Sequence record: NC_028957.1
Length of the DNA: 64,000 nt
Strand: one strand, 5' to 3'
Origin: Escherichia phage vB_EcoM_VR26
Shown: positions 2,982-41,449 of the stretch, piece after piece
Layout of the letters: each line of letters opens with the position of its first letter
Numbering within the stretch: the stretch's first letter is position 1
Position numbers and translations under genes: made by a program
Notes under the pieces: generated by a model
What the model was told of the DNA's origin: nothing
Databases searched by the model: none
Seen by the model: the letters and a program-made list of their open reading frames with translations, nothing else

Positions 2982-4820
2982 TTATAGCGTCGCATTCATC
3001 CAATCTTTACGTGGTTTTGATTCTTTACCGAAAAGCATTTCAAACAGGTCTTTCCAGTTTTCAGGTAATTGAACAACTTCGAATACCGGTTCGAGTAATA
3101 CTCGTTTGTACTCGGAATCTTCCAGAGAACCCAGCCCCTTGATATATCTGATGGTATGCTTCGGAAGTTTATCCTTAGCTTCTTCATAATCGGGAAGAGA
3201 ATAGAACCATTCTTGTTTATCTTTGAGCTGTGCAATAATAACAGGAGTTTTCACAAAGCGAATACGTCCTTCATGGAACAGCTCCGGCCAGTTACTGAAA
3301 AATGCCAATAACGATGGATAGATACTACCGACACCATCCACATCCGCATCTGTCATGATAGCGATATTTCGGTAATTCATATTCTCGGCTGGTTGTCCAA
3401 TCGTTAATCCAGTAATCGCACACACATCAAAGGCTTCTGCGTTTTTCATAACTTCAACAGCTTTCAGACCCCATGTGTTTTTGAACTTACCGCGCAACGG
3501 ATAAGCGCCTTGCAATTCACGGTCACGAACCTTGATAAACGGACCCGTTGCAGAATCCCCTTCGGTCAGGAACAAAGTCGTTTCCAGCTTGTCATTGCCC
3601 CATTCGTTGGCCTTGATATGTTTCTGTACCTTGGCCTTTGAAGCTTTCTTATTCGCCTTAGTCTCTGCTGCTTTCTCTGCAGCCAATTTACGAGCCAATG
3701 CAGCTTCAATAATGGGCATCAGAATAGCTTCTGATTTTAACAACGAACCCGCCAACTTTTTGCCATCAACCTGGATATGTGATTTAATTTCGCCAGCCGG
3801 AGAAGTCAATCGTTCCTTGGTCTGGGAATCAAATCGCATATTTTTCATATTGCGAATAAACATCAACAACGTAATACATTCTTTAACGCGTGCTTTGGTT
3901 ACTTCAATTTTATACTTGCGTTTAATTGCTGGGATTAATACATCACACATTTCATCCATAACACATTCAATATGGTGACCACCATTTTTTGTGTGGATGT
4001 TGTTGACGTAAGTCAGATGTCTAAATCCATCAGGTGACCGACCGAGTGCAATTGAGCAATTATCTTGTTCCTGGATAATGATTTCATCATCATATTGTTT
4101 AGCAAACTTTTTAAACTGACCTTGTACCTTTTTACCATTGAATTTGAATTCAATATCAGGATAAACAACAGCAAGAGTCTGCAGACGGTCAAGAGTAATA
4201 TCCAGATAAATTTTATCAAAACTGTTCATTTCAAAATGGCTAAAGTCTGGAATAAACTCAACCTTGGTGCCATTGGATTTGGTCGGTTTGGTTTTCCATG
4301 ATACATTATCGGCGTTATTTGAACAACTTACACGAAGCTCATTTTTACCGTCAGATGTGGTCCCCGTAAAAAGGATTGAAAAAATATTAGTAAGACTTGA
4401 ACCCACACCATTTTGGCCACCGGTCACACGTTCTTTGTCATCACCGAAATTCCCGCCCGCTTTGGTTTTCGTCCATGCCGCTACGGGCCCAGGTAATTCT
4501 TCACCTTCTGGTGTTACGACAACAGCTTGTGGAATACCGCGGCCATTATCTTCAACAGTAACTTTGCTATCAGTCAGAGAAATATCAACAGAAATTTTAT
4601 TTGCAAATTTGAAATTTGTACGTATGGCTTCATCGACCGAGTTGTCAATAATCTCATCAATCAGTTTTAATACACCCGCCACATAAGATACTTTAGTATA
4701 TTCACCAAATAAAAATCTTTCGTATTCTTCATATGAAACACTTCCTATGTACATTCCCGGACGTTTCAAACAATGGTCTTTATCTGAAAGCAGTTCAATT
4801 TTATTTTCAATCATAATCAA
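2982..4820 (-). CDS. 39: DNA topoisomerase II large subunit (GyrB-like ATPase + Toprim), uninterrupted 39/60 form
   Basis: 612 aa; GHKL motifs IDNSVDE and VEDNGRGIP; Toprim motif LTEGDSA; no gene-60-type interruption. Confidence 0.9.
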   Translation of the reverse strand: MIMIENKIELLSDKDHCLKRPGMYIGSVSYEEYERFLFGEYTKVSYVAGVLKLIDEIIDNSVDEAIRTNFKFANKISVDISLTDSKVTVEDNGRGIPQAVVVTPEGEELPGPVAAWTKTKAGGNFGDDKERVTGGQNGVGSSLTNIFSILFTGTTSDGKNELRVSCSNNADNVSWKTKPTKSNGTKVEFIPDFSHFEMNSFDKIYLDITLDRLQTLAVVYPDIEFKFNGKKVQGQFKKFAKQYDDEIIIQEQDNCSIALGRSPDGFRHLTYVNNIHTKNGGHHIECVMDEMCDVLIPAIKRKYKIEVTKARVKECITLLMFIRNMKNMRFDSQTKERLTSPAGEIKSHIQVDGKKLAGSLLKSEAILMPIIEAALARKLAAEKAAETKANKKASKAKVQKHIKANEWGNDKLETTLFLTEGDSATGPFIKVRDRELQGAYPLRGKFKNTWGLKAVEVMKNAEAFDVCAITGLTIGQPAENMNYRNIAIMTDADVDGVGSIYPSLLAFFSNWPELFHEGRIRFVKTPVIIAQLKDKQEWFYSLPDYEEAKDKLPKHTIRYIKGLGSLEDSEYKRVLLEPVFEVVQLPENWKDLFEMLFGKESKPRKDWMNATL

Positions 4821-5579
4821 TTATTCCTTACTTTGTTTCAAGTATTCTATCGCAGTTTCTAATGAAGCAATATTGTCTTTAAACATTCCTAGTCCTATGT
4901 TGCATTTTGAACATAAAATACCTCGGACTTTACCAGTCGAGTGACAATGGTCTACATTGAACCAAGTGCTTTTTGATAAAGAAGTCGAATTGTTTGTTAG
5001 TTTTATTTTACAAATTTCGCAGTATGGTGTATCCTCAATTAACTTCAGAACATCCCGTCTTTTCATCTTTATAGAATGACTGTATGATAAGTCCAGCAAT
5101 TTGGTATCCCTTGCCTTTTGACAACAAGAATCCGAACAATATTTTTGAGTCCTATTTGTTGCAGTATACTCAATAGCACACACAGGACAAATACGCTCTT
5201 CCTTGAATATTCCACCACCCTGGCATTTAACTGAACAAAATTCATGGTAACCGGTCGCGAATGTATGATAATTAACAGGCTTACCACACTTACACAGGAC
5301 TTTCCCTTTTATATCATGTAAAATACGATAACAGACCTCGTTATACGGATGTTGTTCTCTTTTACCTCCCTGACATTCCAGTGCTTCTGCTCTAAAGGCA
5401 TTTGCTTCCTCAGGATGTTTTTCCCAAAATTTCTTTGCAAATTCTAAATCATTTTTAAATAAATTTCCGTTTAGTCTATTCGGATTTTTAGTTAAAAGAT
5501 TTTCTTCAATAAATTGTTTTAAGTTCATGGAGGTATTATAAGTCACATATTTTAAAGCAAAAAGGCCCGAAGGCCTCAT
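4821..5579 (-). CDS. Cys-rich zinc-finger protein with C-terminal endonuclease VII-like nuclease motif
   Basis: C-terminal VDHCHSTGKVRGILCSKCNIGLG parallels gp49 motif DHDHELNGPKAGKVRGLLCNLCNG; several CxxC pairs; AT-rich; start ambiguous (ATGA-coupled ATG at 5579 inside hairpin, or ATG at 5528). Confidence 0.6.
   Translation of the reverse strand: MRPSGLFALKYVTYNTSMNLKQFIEENLLTKNPNRLNGNLFKNDLEFAKKFWEKHPEEANAFRAEALECQGGKREQHPYNEVCYRILHDIKGKVLCKCGKPVNYHTFATGYHEFCSVKCQGGGIFKEERICPVCAIEYTATNRTQKYCSDSCCQKARDTKLLDLSYSHSIKMKRRDVLKLIEDTPYCEICKIKLTNNSTSLSKSTWFNVDHCHSTGKVRGILCSKCNIGLGMFKDNIASLETAIEYLKQSKE
5556..5577 (-). terminator. rho-independent terminator-like hairpin (UUCG tetraloop)
   Basis: aggcc-cgaa-ggcct with adjacent A-run; overlaps stop of 5576..5836 and first codons of 4821..5579. 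Confidence 0.45.
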
Positions 5580-5836
5580 TCAAATCGGATGGTTGAATTC
5601 TTGAACAACAATCCAGAACAAACAGTTCCTTCAACTTTCTTACCAGTTGGACCCACTGCTATAAAACCAGTATGCTGGAAATCATCTTTGGAGCATCCAA
5701 ACCAGTTATATCCGGTGATTTGGATTTGCTCATTGCCGTTTGCATCTAATACACGAACGGCATTATCTGCGTCAGTACAACCAGCCAATGAAACAGCCAA
5801 AACCAGCGCGGCAATAGAACGATTAATATATTTCAT
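5576..5836 (-). CDS. small lipoprotein
   Basis: 86 aa; signal peptide with lipobox LAGC; stop overlaps next start (ATGA). Confidence 0.6.
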   Translation of the reverse strand: MKYINRSIAALVLAVSLAGCTDADNAVRVLDANGNEQIQITGYNWFGCSKDDFQHTGFIAVGPTGKKVEGTVCSGLLFKNSTIRFE

Positions 5837-6023
5837 ATTTCCTCATTTAAGCAGGTCGTAAAACCCGCCATTAACATGTTTAGGGGCCGAGACTAGCCGA
5901 ACAGCCAGCCGATGGCAATCAGGGCAAACATCATTATCTCTTTCAGAGATTTTCTTGATTTTTTCGTATTCTTTTGCGCAGTCTTTGGATTGACATTTGT
6001 AATCATAAAGTGGCATCTCTAAA

Positions 6024-6383
6024 TTATTCCTTAAAGTGTGCTTTCAACATCTGGAAAACTGACCAGGCTTCTTCATTATTACTAATGGTGATTTTAGTCA
6101 ATGGGAATGCAGTGATTTCTGGAGCTTCAGTTTCTTCATCGCCGTCATCTTTTTCTTCTTCAAAGAAATGGAATTCCTCTTCTGTTATGAATAGACTCTC
6201 CATCCCGCCGGTTGACAATTCTATTTTATACACATCGCCACCTTCAATTTTGACTGGTCTAAACCCTTCGCCATTGATTATAGCATCAGCTATATTATCA
6301 TTATCCGTGCATAACAAACGGAATCTACTTTCAGAAGCATTGTCTTTAAAATAATACCATTTATCAGTTTCAAATTTAGACAT
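6024..6383 (-). CDS. hypothetical acidic protein
   Basis: ATG at 6381-6383 (MSKFETDKW) with AAGGAG SD; track start further upstream is an over-extension. Confidence 0.45.
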   Translation of the reverse strand: MSKFETDKWYYFKDNASESRFRLLCTDNDNIADAIINGEGFRPVKIEGGDVYKIELSTGGMESLFITEEEFHFFEEEKDDGDEETEAPEITAFPLTKITISNNEEAWSVFQMLKAHFKE

Positions 6384-6600
6384 TATAAGTCTCCTTCCAA
6401 AAATCTGTACCATCTTCTGACTCTTCGCGGAACAAAGCATAGCTTGGTAGCTGTGCGTCTTTATTTTCATACACATAAATGATATCAGTTGTGCAAAGAA
6501 ACTCATTGATGTTTTTCTTAACAATCACTTTATCACTTTCAGCGGTGTCCCAAAACTCTTCAGCAGTCAGGGAAGTGGTCACACAATCTTCATTGAACAT
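6376..6600 (-). CDS. hypothetical protein
   Basis: 74-aa ORF with ATG start; promoter-like leader with inverted repeat upstream. Confidence 0.45.
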   Translation of the reverse strand: MFNEDCVTTSLTAEEFWDTAESDKVIVKKNINEFLCTTDIIYVYENKDAQLPSYALFREESEDGTDFWKETYNV

Positions 6601-35472: not shown

Positions 35473-35724
35473 TTAATCCTTGGGAGTTAACTCAATTGTA
35501 AAATATAGATTAGCATTATCCACATGATAACGGTAATCAACGTTATTATCCGGTGAAGTAAATTCCAGATTCCGGACGTTTAAAGGGTCGATATCAATTG
35601 GAAGACCTTTTATGTCTCGCAGATAAAGTTTAATGAAATATGGGAGCGCTGTAAAGTCTTCCTCGATTTTATCTAAAAAATCGGTAATATCAAATTGATG
35701 TTCCATATAAAAAATCCAAATCAC
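35473..35724 (-). CDS. hypothetical protein
   Basis: 83-aa ORF. Confidence 0.4.
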
Positions 35725-36247
35725 CTTCTTTATCTTTGGCGCTCTTATCAGACCCTGGCGCTTTAACTAAGGAGGATTCGTACTGTGTCATTTTGTCATA
35801 GATGTCCTGGATAAATGTTTCGTCAGCCAGAGCCACCATATCGTCGTCACGTGAATCATACACGTTATGGACGAAGTAGCTATATTTCTTTGCCATTTCT
35901 TTACGTTCTTTTTTGATACGCTGAACGAAAGCATTGAAGCAAGCCATTGTTATGTAAGCATGTGGATTATCGTATTTTGTTTCGTCGAAGTTATGAAGAC
36001 CTTTTATTGCGGCCTCAATTCCGTCCGCTATCATTTCCTGCTTCCAAGATTGGGTATATCCTGAAAAGTTGAAACGTTTAGACAGACCTTCGGCTATAAG
36101 CATAATCGCCAGACCAATAACATCGTTCTGGCGAATAATTTTATTTGGGTCGGTATTTGCATTCAGCTTCTGTTTCCACTCCGAAATAGCTTTCAGAAGC
36201 TCTTTATTATTTACATAGTTATTCTTGGTTAATTTAATTTCGTTCAT
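35690..36247 (-). CDS. 55: late-transcription sigma factor
   Basis: 185 aa; long conserved block matches recalled T4 gp55. Confidence 0.88.
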
Positions 36248-36295
36248 ATCGCCTCACTTAGTATATGAATATTATATCATCCTTGATACAAAGCG

Positions 36296-36562
36296 TTAGC
36301 GAAGTAAACAGTAAGCCTGGAAGACCTTCTCCATAATTGCCTTAAATTCGTGGATGTCAATATAAGGGATAACCTCAGCATCACTAATGAATTCCATCAG
36401 CCGGTCATGCTCTTCACGATAATAAGCTTCATTCAGCTTGCTGATATGAGATTCCCAGGAGCCATACCCTTCTGCACGTGGGAAGAATGTTATTTTCATG
36501 AATTCATCCACCCAAAACGTTCCCAGGTCCTGGACGGATATCATTGTATGATTGATGTGCAT
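36296..36562 (-). CDS. hypothetical protein
   Basis: 88-aa ORF. Confidence 0.4.
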   Translation of the reverse strand: MHINHTMISVQDLGTFWVDEFMKITFFPRAEGYGSWESHISKLNEAYYREEHDRLMEFISDAEVIPYIDIHEFKAIMEKVFQAYCLLR

Positions 36563-36828
36563 CAGTGCACCAATTGGGCAGCTTCTAAAACATCATCAAG
36601 CTTATCAAACTGGTCAACATAATCAATCCCGCCAACTTCATCTTTGGCATACAACCAATACTGCTTGAATTCGTATTCAATAATAAAGTGGTCGCCTTCA
36701 ATCTGGAGGGCACCAACATCATTAAATTGAACTGCATAACCCGTAAAGCGGATATCATTCAGGAGTTCTTCTTTCATAGTAATCATTTCCAGGTTTTTCT
36801 CATAATGAGAGAGTTTAATTTTAATCAT
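36562..36828 (-). CDS. hypothetical protein
   Basis: 88-aa ORF. Confidence 0.4.
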   Translation of the reverse strand: MIKIKLSHYEKNLEMITMKEELLNDIRFTGYAVQFNDVGALQIEGDHFIIEYEFKQYWLYAKDEVGGIDYVDQFDKLDDVLEAAQLVH

Positions 36829-37169
36829 TTCGCGCCCTTAACAATTTTCAGGTCAACAAAACCTTTCTTACGCTGGGAATTCATGCGCTTGATGGCTTTG
36901 TCAGAAACTTCTTTGTTTTCACGTGGGAGCGGCAGACCAAACGCTACTACATCAAATTCATTCAGGATATACTGGACAAGGCTTTCACGAATACGCGCTT
37001 TACCCATTGTCTGACCTTCTGCAATAATCAACTTCTGTACATCACCTTCCCACTGGTCCAGAATCTCAGGAGTAACGAAACCAGATTTCATCAGAGTGTT
37101 AACTTTAGCAAATGCGAAATTAGCGATGGTGTTAGTGATAGATGCAGTCATGATATATTCCTCAGTCAA
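36825..37169 (-). CDS. hypothetical protein
   Basis: 114-aa ORF. Confidence 0.45.
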   Translation of the reverse strand: MTEEYIMTASITNTIANFAFAKVNTLMKSGFVTPEILDQWEGDVQKLIIAEGQTMGKARIRESLVQYILNEFDVVAFGLPLPRENKEVSDKAIKRMNSQRKKGFVDLKIVKGAK

Positions 37170-37223
37170 TTAAATTAAAATTTTATTATCCTTGGGGTCA
37201 TTATACCATGACCCCGTTGGTTT

Positions 37224-37421
37224 TTACTGCGCTTTAGCACCTTTCCAGCCTTCGTACATCAATGCGGCCGATAATAATATTGTCCCTGCACATTTTGAAT
37301 AATAGAGATTCCAAAACCAGTTCAGAAAAACTTCATCATCAATACCTTGAGCTATCATATTTTCAAAGAACTGACGACGAGATTCAGCAATTCGCTGTGA
37401 TAATTTAGATTCAGGATTCAT
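37224..37421 (-). CDS. hypothetical small protein
   Basis: 65-aa ORF. Confidence 0.35.
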   Translation of the reverse strand: MNPESKLSQRIAESRRQFFENMIAQGIDDEVFLNWFWNLYYSKCAGTILLSAALMYEGWKGAKAQ

Positions 37422-37646
37422 TTAAATTTTCCAGTTACCGTTTTCATCAATAAATTTAATCCAGTCATTTACTGACCACTTAGTTGTATCGCCTTTTGGA
37501 GCAGAATTTAAAGTGTATAATCCTTGTTTAAAAAGCATTCGTTTAATATTCATGTTTTCCTCAGCTGTAACGATAACATTCGTTTGATTTACGCTTTGCA
37601 ACACGGTGAGAAGTATTATAATCCAAATCATCCTCAACGTATACAT
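37422..37646 (-). CDS. hypothetical small protein
   Basis: 74-aa ORF; overlaps 37561..37878, so one of the two starts is wrong. Confidence 0.3.
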   Translation of the reverse strand: MYTLRMIWIIILLTVLQSVNQTNVIVTAEENMNIKRMLFKQGLYTLNSAPKGDTTKWSVNDWIKFIDENGNWKI

Positions 37647-37878
37647 CTTTTTTCAACTGACGAACTTCTTTACGCAGTTGACGATTCATCTCATTCTTAA
37701 CTTCTGAATCAACACCACGCATACGCTTCCATTTGTCGGAACGGAAGATATTTTCGTTCAAAGTTTCTTCTGATACACCATCAGGCGCTTTACGTCTAGC
37801 TATGCAATTAAAATCTTTAGAAGACAAATCTTTACGACGAATAGTTTTACCCATAGTTACCTCAGCAGTTAGCGTCAA
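37561..37878 (-). CDS. hypothetical basic protein
   Basis: 105-aa ORF; start uncertain. Confidence 0.35.
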   Translation of the reverse strand: MTLTAEVTMGKTIRRKDLSSKDFNCIARRKAPDGVSEETLNENIFRSDKWKRMRGVDSEVKNEMNRQLRKEVRQLKKDVYVEDDLDYNTSHRVAKRKSNECYRYS

Positions 37879-38137
37879 TAAGATTTTTGATATACTGGAT
37901 ATCTTTGATACCCAAATCCAACTTAAGGTCTTCCAGACGTTCGCCCAGGGACAAAAAGGTTACATGCTTCCAATTTTTTATTGGGCAACAATAAGTCTTA
38001 GGACCATTTGCAATTTCAATATTCTTATCAGCGATGGTGAGAAAAATCAGACGCTCATCATCCAGATTAAGGGTAATGATATTTTTCATTGCGTGTAATT
38101 TAAGGCTCATGATTTGATTTCCTCTGCTACTGCACAA
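37862..38137 (-). CDS. hypothetical protein
   Basis: 91-aa ORF. Confidence 0.4.
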   Translation of the reverse strand: MCSSRGNQIMSLKLHAMKNIITLNLDDERLIFLTIADKNIEIANGPKTYCCPIKNWKHVTFLSLGERLEDLKLDLGIKDIQYIKNLIDANC

Positions 38138-38289
38138 AACACGCTACGGTCACACACCATCTGTGGGGCATCAGGCCAATTCAAAGGTTGATACCATACA
38201 TCCAGACTTGATATTTTAGTTACTTGAACAGGATAGCCATTTACAGAATAATACCGGTCAACTTTAATTTCTTTATCTTGAACAACCAT
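38107..38289 (-). CDS. hypothetical small protein
   Basis: 60 aa; ATG directly after conserved leader CATCAACTACTGATGAGGAAAAC. Confidence 0.5.
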   Translation of the reverse strand: MVVQDKEIKVDRYYSVNGYPVQVTKISSLDVWYQPLNWPDAPQMVCDRSVFCAVAEEIKS

Positions 38290-38320
38290 TTTGTTTTCCT
38301 CATCAGTAGTTGATGGGATA

Positions 38321-38360
38321 ATGATACATCATTCAAAGGGGCTTGTACACCCCTTTTTAA
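38321..38360 (-). promoter_or_regulatory. early promoter with TGTACA in hairpin loop, ATCAACTACTGATGAGG leader
   Basis: aaagggg-cttgtacac-cccttttt hairpin 38335-38360 after nrdH-like stop; leader runs into ATG at 38289. Confidence 0.5.
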
Positions 38361-38674
38361 TCTTCAATTAAGTCCTGGTCATACCCCAAGGATATCAGTT
38401 TTGTTTTAAAGGCAGGAATATTGGTCATTTTTTCATCATTGACAAAAATCACCGGGTAACGAATGTTAAGGGTAGGATATCCAGCACGCTTAGCCAGAGA
38501 CACGATTAAAGGCCTGTCATAAGCGATTTCAGAGCCTTGTTTGTTAAGGACTGAATAGAATGTATAGGGAAGGTTTAAGGAGCCCAGAAGGCTCCTGATG
38601 TGCATACAACCAGGGCATCGACCGACTTCTTCGGGAATGCCATAGATTTCAATTTTAGTCGAGTTTTGGCCCAC
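38357..38674 (-). CDS. glutaredoxin/thioredoxin-fold protein (NrdH-like)
   Basis: 105 aa; redox motif CPGC near N-terminus. Confidence 0.55.
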   Translation of the reverse strand: MGQNSTKIEIYGIPEEVGRCPGCMHIRSLLGSLNLPYTFYSVLNKQGSEIAYDRPLIVSLAKRAGYPTLNIRYPVIFVNDEKMTNIPAFKTKLISLGYDQDLIED

Positions 38675-38954
38675 AGGAAATTACTCCTTGGTAGTTCCAG
38701 GTTTTAATAACTTCTTCATCACTGGTAGTTTCATACGGAATGTAAACCTGTACAAGGAAACCAGTGTCATCGAAAGAGAAATAAACTGTCGGTTTGATTC
38801 CATGAATCTCGGATTGGGCATAGATATCTTTAAGGTCTTCTTCCTTATCAGCAAAGAATTCCGGGTTCAGGTCACAGTCATGGAAGTACCATTCATCACC
38901 GAACTTGTCCCACGCGGTCCAATTAGTAGCTACATATTCTTCAAAACGTTTCAT
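38655..38954 (-). CDS. hypothetical acidic protein
   Basis: 99-aa ORF. Confidence 0.4.
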   Translation of the reverse strand: MKRFEEYVATNWTAWDKFGDEWYFHDCDLNPEFFADKEEDLKDIYAQSEIHGIKPTVYFSFDDTGFLVQVYIPYETTSDEEVIKTWNYQGVISCGPKLD

Positions 38955-39166
38955 TCTTTCACCTTCATCATTTTAGCAATAACACTATGGACAGCCTGGA
39001 TTCGTTTGTCGAACTCAGAGCTTTCGAGGCCAGGATTGGTGCTCAACCAACCAATGATAACAAACAGCAAACCAAACGGGATAGCCAGAATAAGCAGACA
39101 AACGATGAACAACACAAGCGTTATGTTTGCCAGAATATCTGCTGCTGCATTACGAAAATTATTCAT
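38951..39166 (-). CDS. small membrane protein
   Basis: 71 aa with one long hydrophobic segment. Confidence 0.4.
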   Translation of the reverse strand: MNNFRNAAADILANITLVLFIVCLLILAIPFGLLFVIIGWLSTNPGLESSEFDKRIQAVHSVIAKMMKVKE

Positions 39167-39287
39167 AGAATAGCCCAGGTATTATTAACAACAAATAACC
39201 ATAGAGAAGGATATTCTACACCCATGCGGCGGATAATATCATTCATAGATTCAGCTAAAGCATAAAATGTGTAGCCATAAAAATTAA

Positions 39288-39761
39288 TCATTTGAGCGAT
39301 TTCCTCAGTTGTTTTTTAAATGAAGCTTGTAGTTTAGGCTTCGTATCAGATTCATTATAAGTCATACCGTTCAAAAGCATTTCCTGAATCATTTCTTCTT
39401 TTCCCAGGCGACCAAACTCTTTGGCTTTGTCTGTCACAAAATTGGGGTGAATATTGTTTTCGGTATAATCAGATTTCAGATAGACAAGCAAACTCTCTAA
39501 CCATTCCAGGTAGTCAACATCGCGACCTTTCAGACCCGAGCGGCTGAACTTATGCTTCATTTGTCCTTCTGTTCCATTGCACAGATTGCATAGTAACCCA
39601 CGAACCTTACCGGCTTTTGGCCCGTTCAATTCGTGGTCATGGTCAAGATGGTTGGCCTGAACATCGGAGTCCAAATCACGGTGGCAAATTGGACACTTAC
39701 CAGCTTGTGCATCATAAAGTTTTTGTTTTTCTTCTTTGTATAATTTGCCAGTCAACAACAT
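39288..39761 (-). CDS. 49: recombination endonuclease VII
   Basis: 157 aa; nearly collinear with recalled T4 gp49, including HLDHDHELNGPKAGKVRGLLCNLCNG. Confidence 0.92.
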   Translation of the reverse strand: MLLTGKLYKEEKQKLYDAQAGKCPICHRDLDSDVQANHLDHDHELNGPKAGKVRGLLCNLCNGTEGQMKHKFSRSGLKGRDVDYLEWLESLLVYLKSDYTENNIHPNFVTDKAKEFGRLGKEEMIQEMLLNGMTYNESDTKPKLQASFKKQLRKSLK

Positions 39762-39972
39762 AATAAACCCTTACCATTATTAGATAAGGGTATTTATTAA
39801 ATATTATAGAACGAGCGATGCAACCGTTTAAATTGACGAATCATCTTTTTGGTAGGACGAGTATACAATCCCACACAGGTGGCCATAAACTGGTCAGTAG
39901 GACTTCCCTTGATAAAAAGTTTCCAGACCTTACCACCATTTAACTTTTCAGTATAGACTAATTCAGTTTTCA

Positions 39973-40242
39973 TTAAACAATCCTAAAACAAGGGTATTCA
40001 CATTCAACGTTACCATTATCAATTATCATATACTCTGTGATACAAGTCCATGACCCTTCAATTTCTATGGTATCAAAAAGGTATTCATCTGTTTCAACAA
40101 CGTCCCAAACATTACATTTAACATCAGGGTCAAAACGTTGTCTTAACGCCTGGATAACATCGCCATTTTTAAATCCTGTGTCTTGAAGCTCTTTCATAAA
40201 ACCTGATTGAGCAGCATGAATATTAACAATTTCTAAAAACAT
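39973..40242 (-). CDS. hypothetical protein
   Basis: 89-aa ORF. Confidence 0.4.
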   Translation of the reverse strand: MFLEIVNIHAAQSGFMKELQDTGFKNGDVIQALRQRFDPDVKCNVWDVVETDEYLFDTIEIEGSWTCITEYMIIDNGNVECEYPCFRIV

Positions 40243-40433
40243 TAAAAGGCCTCATCAGAATAGCGAAGTTGAGCTTCAAGCCAATGAATATAATCTGCTG
40301 CGGCAAAAATTAAAGCCGATTCTTCATCGGGTAACTTACGAGAATCCGACAGCTCGTAAAGAGAATGTTCAATTAAACGACCTTTATGTCGACCTACTTC
40401 AATTTTGGTACTCATACCCAAACTCCATATCAA
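40242..40433 (-). CDS. hypothetical small protein
   Basis: 63-aa ORF. Confidence 0.35.
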   Translation of the reverse strand: MIWSLGMSTKIEVGRHKGRLIEHSLYELSDSRKLPDEESALIFAAADYIHWLEAQLRYSDEAF

Positions 40434-41185: not shown

Positions 41186-41449
41186 TCATTTGAAATATTC
41201 TCGCAGTTCAGTGAATCCGCCAATATGACTTCCGTCAGGAGCAAACACTTGTGGCATAGTCAAACCAATTTGAGATTCGCGACCAAGTGCAGCCAGGAGT
41301 TGAGCAATCTTCTCATCATCAAACACACCTTTTTCTGGCATGACGTTGATGAATTCGTAAGGTTGTTTTTTAACATCCAAAAAACGTTTTACATTATCGC
41401 AGAATACACAGCGATGGATAGATGAATCATAACCATATACTTTAAACAT
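41186..41449 (-). CDS. nrdC: thioredoxin
   Basis: 87 aa, near-identical to recalled T4 NrdC (MFKVYGYDS, CVFC, GGFTELREYFK). Confidence 0.9.
   Translation of the reverse strand: MFKVYGYDSSIHRCVFCDNVKRFLDVKKQPYEFINVMPEKGVFDDEKIAQLLAALGRESQIGLTMPQVFAPDGSHIGGFTELREYFK

Follow-up and report, generated by a model that had tools for sequence, protein, structure and literature searches.

A probable nrdDG-less allele of a variable spot between genes 55 and 49 of Escherichia phage vB_EcoM_VR26

Introduction

In phage T4, the interval between genes 55 and 49 contains, in order, 55.1–55.6, nrdH, 55.8, nrdG, mobC, and nrdD with its I-TevII intron (T4 record). An earlier note on Escherichia phage vB_EcoM_VR26 (NC_028957.1) gave these T4 contents correctly as nrdH, nrdG, a mob gene, and an intron-containing nrdD. 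It also reported that the corresponding interval of VR26 (36248–39287) has no anaerobic ribonucleotide reductase (RNR) genes and holds small open reading frames (ORFs) that might serve host takeover or anti-defence. The question raised by this locus is what an interval without nrdD and nrdG represents: a loss private to this phage, a move of the genes to another site, their replacement by the small ORFs, or a state shared with relatives. Here, we investigated the interval within the window, that is, the whole stretch of DNA analyzed, which covers 64 kb of a ~170-kb genome and leaves ~105 kb outside. All positions are those of the window unless another stretch is named.

Results and discussion

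Absence of nrdD and nrdG

By megablast, VR26 belongs to the well-sampled genus Gaprivervirus (Straboviridae, Tevenvirinae). A 20-kb stretch around the interval is 94–96% identical to phages TH15, VR25, and VR7, and positions 35600–39800, which comprise the interval and both flanking genes, align over their full length to VR7 at 94.5% nucleotide identity. No identical record came up in these searches. The landmarks of the interval and the site at which relatives carry nrdD and nrdG are the following:

35690..36247, minus strand: gene 55, late sigma factor, left landmark (80% amino acid identity to T4 gp55 over 182 residues; annotated 55 at the aligned position in VR7 and VR25)
39288..39761, minus strand: gene 49, endonuclease VII, right landmark (83% identity to T4 gp49; Pfam Endonuclease_7 PF02945 and Endonuc-dimeris PF09124)
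39288..39291, minus strand: junction point ATGA, gp49 stop and small-ORF start (by alignment to VR25, relatives carry a 2.3-kb nrdD-nrdG here)
39163..39291, minus strand: 42-residue ORF, phrog_3350 (PHROG E 1.9e-22; its ATG overlaps the gp49 stop as ATGA, and its stop overlaps the 55.8 start)

We searched the whole window by tblastn using NrdD (~605 residues) and NrdG (~156 residues) of VR25; the earlier note had proposed a search of the whole genome. Neither protein had a match at this locus or elsewhere in the window, the best E values being 5.9 for NrdD and 0.92 for NrdG, and no ORF in the interval is large enough for NrdD. The ORF list and family searches likewise contained no homing-endonuclease passenger (mobC, segH, or I-TevII) in 36248–39287. 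An Rfam scan of the whole window returned no group I intron and no other family, and ARAGORN returned no tRNA. Repeats within the interval were short two-copy matches only, and flanking repeats of the kind left by a mobile element were absent. The absence of anaerobic RNR genes between 55 and 49 is thus borne out, as are the absence of a mob gene and the presence of a glutaredoxin-like gene with a CPGC motif (38357–38674).

Layout of the interval in related phages

The nrdDG-less layout between 55 and 49 is already known: these phages have been sequenced heavily, and the layout is documented among them as a polymorphism between lineages. A survey of phage RNRs published in 2013, which used a hidden Markov model (HMM) search, lists VR7, JS98, JS10, and IME08 in its Table S1 with nrdB-nrdA only (class I) and SP18, RB69, and T4 with class I and class III (PMC3653736). 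No paper whose main text treats both VR7 and nrdD came up in a literature search; the absence is recorded in the supplementary table only. Judged by gene order, the nrdDG-less layout is standard in Dhakavirus (JS98, VR5) and a minority state in Gaprivervirus (VR7, MN01, TH15), and it is shared with these phages rather than peculiar to VR26. All Dhakaviruses examined are without the oxygen-independent RNR.

The gene order met in VR26 is 55, a DUF7200 ORF, 55.1–55.5, a DUF7290 ORF, 55.6, nrdH, an ORF similar to VR7ORF078c, 55.8, a small ORF, and 49. Each gene of this interval has its counterpart, in the same order, in JS98, VR5, and TH15, and VR7 and MN01 are likewise collinear apart from one extra ORF. 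VR7 (HM563683, 35676–40005), of the same genus, has the same junction without nrdG or nrdD, where nrdH, VR7ORF078c, 55.8, and a small ORF are followed by gene 49. JS98 and VR5 share the entire gene order with VR26, down to three ORFs (DUF7200, DUF7290, and 078c-like) and the junction without nrdDG, and VR5 annotates the same 129-nucleotide small ORF at 90% nucleotide identity. However, both belong to another genus and are only 73–83% identical in nucleotides over the rest of the interval, and VR5 has no annotated 55.4.

The relatives that carry the reductase genes differ from VR26 at one place. VR25, SP18, and VR20 are 95% identical to VR26 in nucleotides on both sides of the junction and have the same eleven upstream small genes, but between 55.8 and 49 they hold nrdD (605 residues), nrdG (156 residues), and a small ORF of the Tequatrovirus type, ~2.4 kb in all. 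T4 has 55.1–55.6, nrdH, and 55.8 in the same order as VR26; unlike VR26, it adds nrdG, mobC, and the intron-containing nrdD with I-TevII, and it lacks the DUF7200, DUF7290, and 078c-like ORFs. We are confident that what VR26 carries here is the allele without nrdDG at a spot already known to vary among genomes of T-even-type phages.

Anatomy of the junction

The sequence gaaatcgct(c/t)aaATGATTAAT at the junction is identical in VR26, VR7, MN01, TH15, VR5, and JS98. Because all six nrdDG-less phages share aaATGATTAAT, the junction points to a single origin of this allele, which would have spread since. In VR25, VR20, and SP18, nrdG-nrdD lies exactly between the gp49 stop codon and the phrog_3350 ORF.

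The 42-residue ORF looks like a coding sequence, as its differences from the VR5 copy are mostly synonymous (10 codons, as against 4 non-synonymous) and it matches phrog_3350. A homologous small ORF (MIKLNYIMDTINDMIFHFGPEFYSQYSLVFINAWLIN) is found downstream of nrdG in VR25 and RB14, where its ATG overlaps the nrdG stop. With the phrog_3350 ORF in both types of allele, what cleanly separates the two is whether nrdD and nrdG are there. The T4 copy, at ~2830–2946 of the compared T4 stretch between nrdG and 55.8, has a frameshift after ~21 codons (MGCGNMIKLNYIMDTINDMIFILVQNFIRSIV), whereas the frames of RB14 and VR25 are intact; this may be why no gene is annotated there in T4. Two other views of the 42-residue ORF were considered. 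Inspection of it found no remnant of nrdD or nrdG, and a role as replacement of the cassette was rejected given the full-length homologue downstream of nrdG in cassette-carrying phages.

The small ORF comes in two types, MINFYG in VR26 and the other nrdDG-less phages and MIKLNY beside the cassette in VR25. Within VR26 it forms a mosaic patch: it is 58–72% identical in nucleotides to the junction ORF of VR7, a different allele of 41 residues, and 87–90% identical to that of the Dhakavirus VR5, with its 5′ part 88–98% identical to TH15. The flanks of the patch are 97–100% identical between VR26 and VR7.

The nrdG-nrdD cassette

We compared VR25 with VR26 and with the Tequatrovirus RB14 to delimit the cassette. 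Relative to VR26, VR25 has an extra 2.3 kb of nrdG-nrdD between 55.8 and 49, with the 95% identity on either side noted above. Between Gaprivervirus and Tequatrovirus, the cassette is ~95% identical and its flanks are 65–80% identical, so that the cassette and its small ORF are nearly identical in genomes whose flanking sequences have strongly diverged. In a sliding-window comparison of VR25 with RB14, identity steps from 40–50% to 92–100% at the 55.8 start codon and drops back ~50 nucleotides inside the 3′ end of gene 49. Third-codon-position identity between the same phages is 92% for nrdG and 88% for nrdD, as against 35–53% for gp55, nrdH, 55.8, and gp49. Protein constraint is not the explanation of the cassette's identity, because synonymous sites are conserved too, and this conservation indicates a recent horizontal exchange of the nrdDG cassette between genera. 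The VR25 cassette is 95.1–95.6% identical to many Tequatrovirus cassettes, as close as to those of other Gapriverviruses (95.6–96.1%).

The nrdG-nrdD cassette was matched in 1009 phage records and the nrdDG-less junction in 59, mostly from Dhakavirus. A 42-nucleotide string across the VR26 junction gave no exact match in IMG/VR. We also observed that 696 of the 1009 records matching VR25 nrdG-nrdD (4178–6462 of the compared stretch) are 90–99% identical to it. This range spans phages of Escherichia, Shigella, Yersinia, and Citrobacter from several genera and lies far above the identity of the neighboring genes.

Homing endonucleases and co-conversion of flanking sequence have been described at nrdD and nrdG loci (PMC2988022), and the plasticity of nrdD has been noted as unusually high (PMC2839356). 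T4 carries both a free-standing endonuclease, mobC, and an intron endonuclease, I-TevII, at this locus.

The twelve small ORFs

Between 55 and 49, the minus strand of VR26 encodes twelve co-directional ORFs of 42–108 residues, many with overlapping stop and start codons. By ORF coordinates, the interval is ~93% coding, with only ~200 nucleotides of non-coding sequence. These values revise the earlier count of about ten ORFs of 60–114 residues, the upper size being reached only with a TTG start for 55.2. In addition to the 42-residue ORF at the junction, the ORFs are the following:

36296..36562, minus strand: 88-residue ORF, DUF7200 / phrog_1822, similar to RB69 ORF072c and equivalent to VR7ORF068c, absent from T4 (PF23830 E 2.7e-33; PHROG E 1.3e-34)
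36562..36828, minus strand: 55.1 homologue, 88 residues as the longest ORF (56% identity to T4 55.1 over 71 residues; PF17599 E 6e-22, residues 18–87 only)
36825..37151, minus strand: 55.2 homologue, 108 residues, basic, isoelectric point (pI) 9.6 (50% identity to T4 55.2 over 107 residues, E 2e-33; PF24454 E 1.5e-31; phrog_1475 E 3.6e-44)
37224..37421, minus strand: 55.3 homologue, 65 residues (71% identity to T4 55.3; PF17593 E 1e-32)
37422..37553, minus strand: 55.4 homologue, 43 residues (93% identity to T4 55.4; PF17583 E 1.5e-33)
37561..37854, minus strand: 55.5 homologue, 97 residues, highly charged, basic (72% identity to T4 55.5; PF17603 E 2e-46)
37862..38110, minus strand: 82-residue ORF, DUF7290 / phrog_4968, similar to JS98 ORF070c and equivalent to VR7ORF075c, absent from T4 and RB14 (PF23962 E 4.5e-37)
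38107..38289, minus strand: 55.6 homologue, 60 residues (53% identity to T4 55.6; phrog_2283 E 2.8e-32)
38357..38674, minus strand: NrdH-like redoxin, 105 residues, GTG start, CPGC motif (66% identity to T4 NrdH; phrog_22 thioredoxin domain E 1e-10)
38655..38954, minus strand: 99-residue acidic ORF, phrog_2749, similar to RB69 ORF082c and VR7ORF078c (net charge −13, pI 4.25)
38951..39166, minus strand: 55.8 homologue, 71 residues, predicted membrane protein (39% identity to T4 55.8; phrog_1930 E 4e-30; grand average of hydropathy +0.88, apolar run)

Profile searches, which the earlier note had also suggested, placed every one of the twelve in a T4-type family (Pfam, PHROG; E 1e-10 to 1e-49). 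Eight have T4 counterparts at 39–93% amino acid identity (55.1–55.6, NrdH, and 55.8). Three are absent from T4 and found in JS98, namely the DUF7200, DUF7290, and 99-residue acidic ORFs, and two of these three also occur in RB14 and under RB69-ORF names in the JS98 record. Ten of the twelve, NrdH included, have no characterized homologue. Sequence records gave no exact match to the 99-residue acidic protein.

Three Met codons could start the 55.1 homologue, at residues 1, 15, and 18 of its longest ORF. The alignments to T4 55.1 and to the family profiles cover it from residue 18 only, leaving the N-terminal 17 residues outside the family, and translation may in truth start at an internal Met, for a product of ~71 residues. 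Annotations differ on this point, as VR7 has the short form (~71 residues) and VR25 the long form. A short direct repeat, TAATCATTTC, marks two of the start contexts of the 55.1 homologue (36562–36828). VR7 and MN01 differ from VR26 and VR25 in the extra 264-nucleotide ORF, VR7ORF070c, which lies between 55.1 and 55.2 at 1722–1985 of the compared VR7 and MN01 stretches and corresponds to 36824–36830 of the window. VR26 thus has a VR25-like state, without VR7ORF070c, 2.4 kb from its VR7-like nrdDG-less state.

T4 gp55.1 interacts with FolD and UvrA, and T4 gp55.2 inhibits the topoisomerase I of Escherichia coli and raises phage fitness; the inhibition of TopA relaxation and the toxicity of the over-expressed protein are known for T4 only (PMC4396842). 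The proposal that the small ORFs take part in host takeover has support by homology for 55.1 and 55.2, and for the rest it is still a guess.

Proposed explanation

If the interval is the nrdDG-less allele of a variable spot, homologous recombination during co-infection would exchange the two alleles between T-even phages, and the homing endonucleases that T4 has at this locus (mobC and I-TevII) would probably assist. The "empty" allele of VR26 would be either inherited or acquired when a short patch was exchanged with a phage resembling Dhakavirus or TH15. Extending T4 nucleotide metabolism to VR26, its deoxynucleoside triphosphates would come from the aerobic class Ia NrdAB encoded outside the window, the NrdC and NrdH redoxins, and breakdown of host DNA, and under anoxia the phage would depend on the host NrdDG. 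The twelve small genes would form a co-directional, largely overlap-coupled prereplicative cluster of accessory genes that adjust host physiology. By analogy with T4, the 55.2 product may inhibit topoisomerase I and the 55.1 product may bind FolD and UvrA.

Several points weigh against this explanation or parts of it. The interval of VR26 has no homing endonuclease gene of its own, and the involvement of endonucleases is something that we infer. With 64 kb in view, the absence of nrdD and nrdG from the whole VR26 genome is likely, by extrapolation from TH15 and VR7. Neither nrdA nor nrdB was seen in the window; on the T4 map they are located elsewhere. The activities of the 55.1 and 55.2 homologues are assumed at 56% and 50% identity. 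A promoter scan gave 19 sites as against 12.7 ± 3.8 in shuffled sequence, barely above, and established no convincing −35/−10 pair. Finally, the direction of change may be read either way, as ancestral absence in Gaprivervirus and Dhakavirus with import from Tequatrovirus, or as loss followed by spread.

The result places VR26 in the Gaprivervirus minority without an oxygen-independent RNR, which matters mainly for annotation. From it, the phage is predicted to be less autonomous where oxygen is lacking, as in the gut, which could bear on which T4-like phages are chosen for therapy. The nrdDG cassette, nearly identical across genera and with sharp edges, would be an example of modular exchange at a homing-endonuclease hotspot and fits known T-even mechanisms. 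The ten ORFs without a characterized homologue are fair targets for functional screens, although no likelier ones here than in hundreds of sequenced relatives.

Alternative explanations

Some of the uncharacterized small ORFs could be anti-defence proteins, the 99-residue protein (38655–38954) acting, for example, as a DNA mimic. Its strong acidity would suit such a role, and the ORF, part of an early accessory region, has been kept in several genera although T4 does not have it. However, family searches linked none of the twelve ORFs to a known anti-defence protein, and a structure model of the acidic protein, with a predicted local distance difference test (pLDDT) score of 70, had no fold match in the PDB. 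As nothing was found that points to anti-defence, this part of the earlier note's suggestion did not hold up, and we consider the idea rather improbable.

A comparably small chance attaches to a more elaborate possibility, in which a dedicated docking site lies between gp49 and the small ORF. Precise insertion or excision of nrdD-nrdG would take place there at ATGA, where stop and start signals overlap, and the module would pass between T-even genera as a cassette that is selfish or adapts its carrier to a niche. The phrog_3350 protein, with its mosaic evolution, or one of the uncharacterized acidic ORFs beside it would act in exchange or counter-defence. None of this conflicts with the data, yet ordinary homologous recombination between phages that infect the same cell would account for just as much.

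Relocation of nrdD and nrdG to a part of the genome outside the window is very unlikely. The ~105 kb there would leave ample room, and T4-type genomes shuffle accessory genes (PMC2839356). However, the complete genome of TH15, which aligns contiguously across the junction of VR26 and has the same junction, holds no match to NrdD or NrdG anywhere (best E 0.16). The HMM-based survey scored VR7, JS98, JS10, and IME08 as class I only (PMC3653736), and nrdDG sits at this exact locus in every carrying relative examined.

We give still less credence to a recent private deletion of nrdD-nrdG from a VR25-like phage, be it an event in the laboratory stock or an artefact of assembly. Short repeats do allow T4 to lose dispensable segments readily, and ATGA microhomology is present at both ends of the cassette in VR25. 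Against this, the same junction is shared by six phages that are independent of one another, belong to two genera, and come from Lithuania, Bangladesh, the USA, and other places, and it occurs in the 59 records counted above. Furthermore, the small ORF of VR26 is of the MINFYG type and not the MIKLNY type found beside the VR25 cassette; therefore, VR26 does not derive from a VR25-like parent by simple deletion.

Equally remote is functional replacement, in which the class III reductase would not simply be lost but give way to an alternative anaerobic dNTP supply by the small ORFs or NrdH: the redoxin NrdH is retained near the empty site and some class III RNRs of other organisms use thioredoxin-type reductants, but none of the twelve ORFs is large enough or related enough for a reductase and none was gained for the cassette, and by their distribution the small ORFs are not stand-ins for nrdDG, since all twelve are also present in the nrdDG-carrying VR25 and eleven (all but the DUF7290 ORF) in the nrdDG-carrying RB14.

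NrdH and NrdC redoxins

The CPGC motif of NrdH and the downstream proline in YPVIF are conserved in all seven phages aligned. The match of NrdH to Pfam Glutaredoxin scored 20.0 bits, under the gathering cut-off of 22.9, and a search of PDB sequences gave no match at E 0.01 or better. T4 NrdH, its closest relative, carries a glutaredoxin annotation with no assigned role. VR26 encodes a second redoxin, distinct from NrdH, at 41186–41449; this NrdC homologue has 87 residues and the active site CVFC, in place of CVYC in T4 NrdC.

Intergenic hairpins

The two largest intergenic gaps each hold a putative hairpin:

37193..37216, no strand assigned: GGGG...CCCC hairpin in the 55.3/55.2 gap, TATAAT in the loop on the minus (coding) strand
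38335..38356, no strand assigned: GGGG...CCCC hairpin in the nrdH/55.6 gap

Both candidates resemble the promoter-early stem-loop (PeSL) cassettes described for phages RB49 and phi1 (PMC2839356), which belong to the hyperplastic regions of T4-type genomes and pair such an intergenic stem-loop with an early promoter of sigma-70 type. A MotA-box middle promoter upstream of 55.2 was considered and rejected for the wrong spacing in the sequence.

Flanking genes

In TH15 (MT446392, flagged UNVERIFIED), a 358-residue ORF at 135558–136634 stands in place of gene 49, at the equivalent of 39321–39759 in the window. It has a SegE-type GIY-YIG domain (PF19835, E 3e-33), and of gp49 only the ~15 last codons are kept at this locus. 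By tblastn, no canonical gp49 was found elsewhere in the TH15 genome, the best match being 30% identical over 80 residues at 598–783. Beyond gene 49, the window contains a 63-residue ORF (40242–40433) in the "inhibitor of host Lon protease" families (phrog_9092, E 2e-42). This ORF corresponds to the C-terminal third only of T4 PinA (161 residues), as is also the case in JS98 and VR7.

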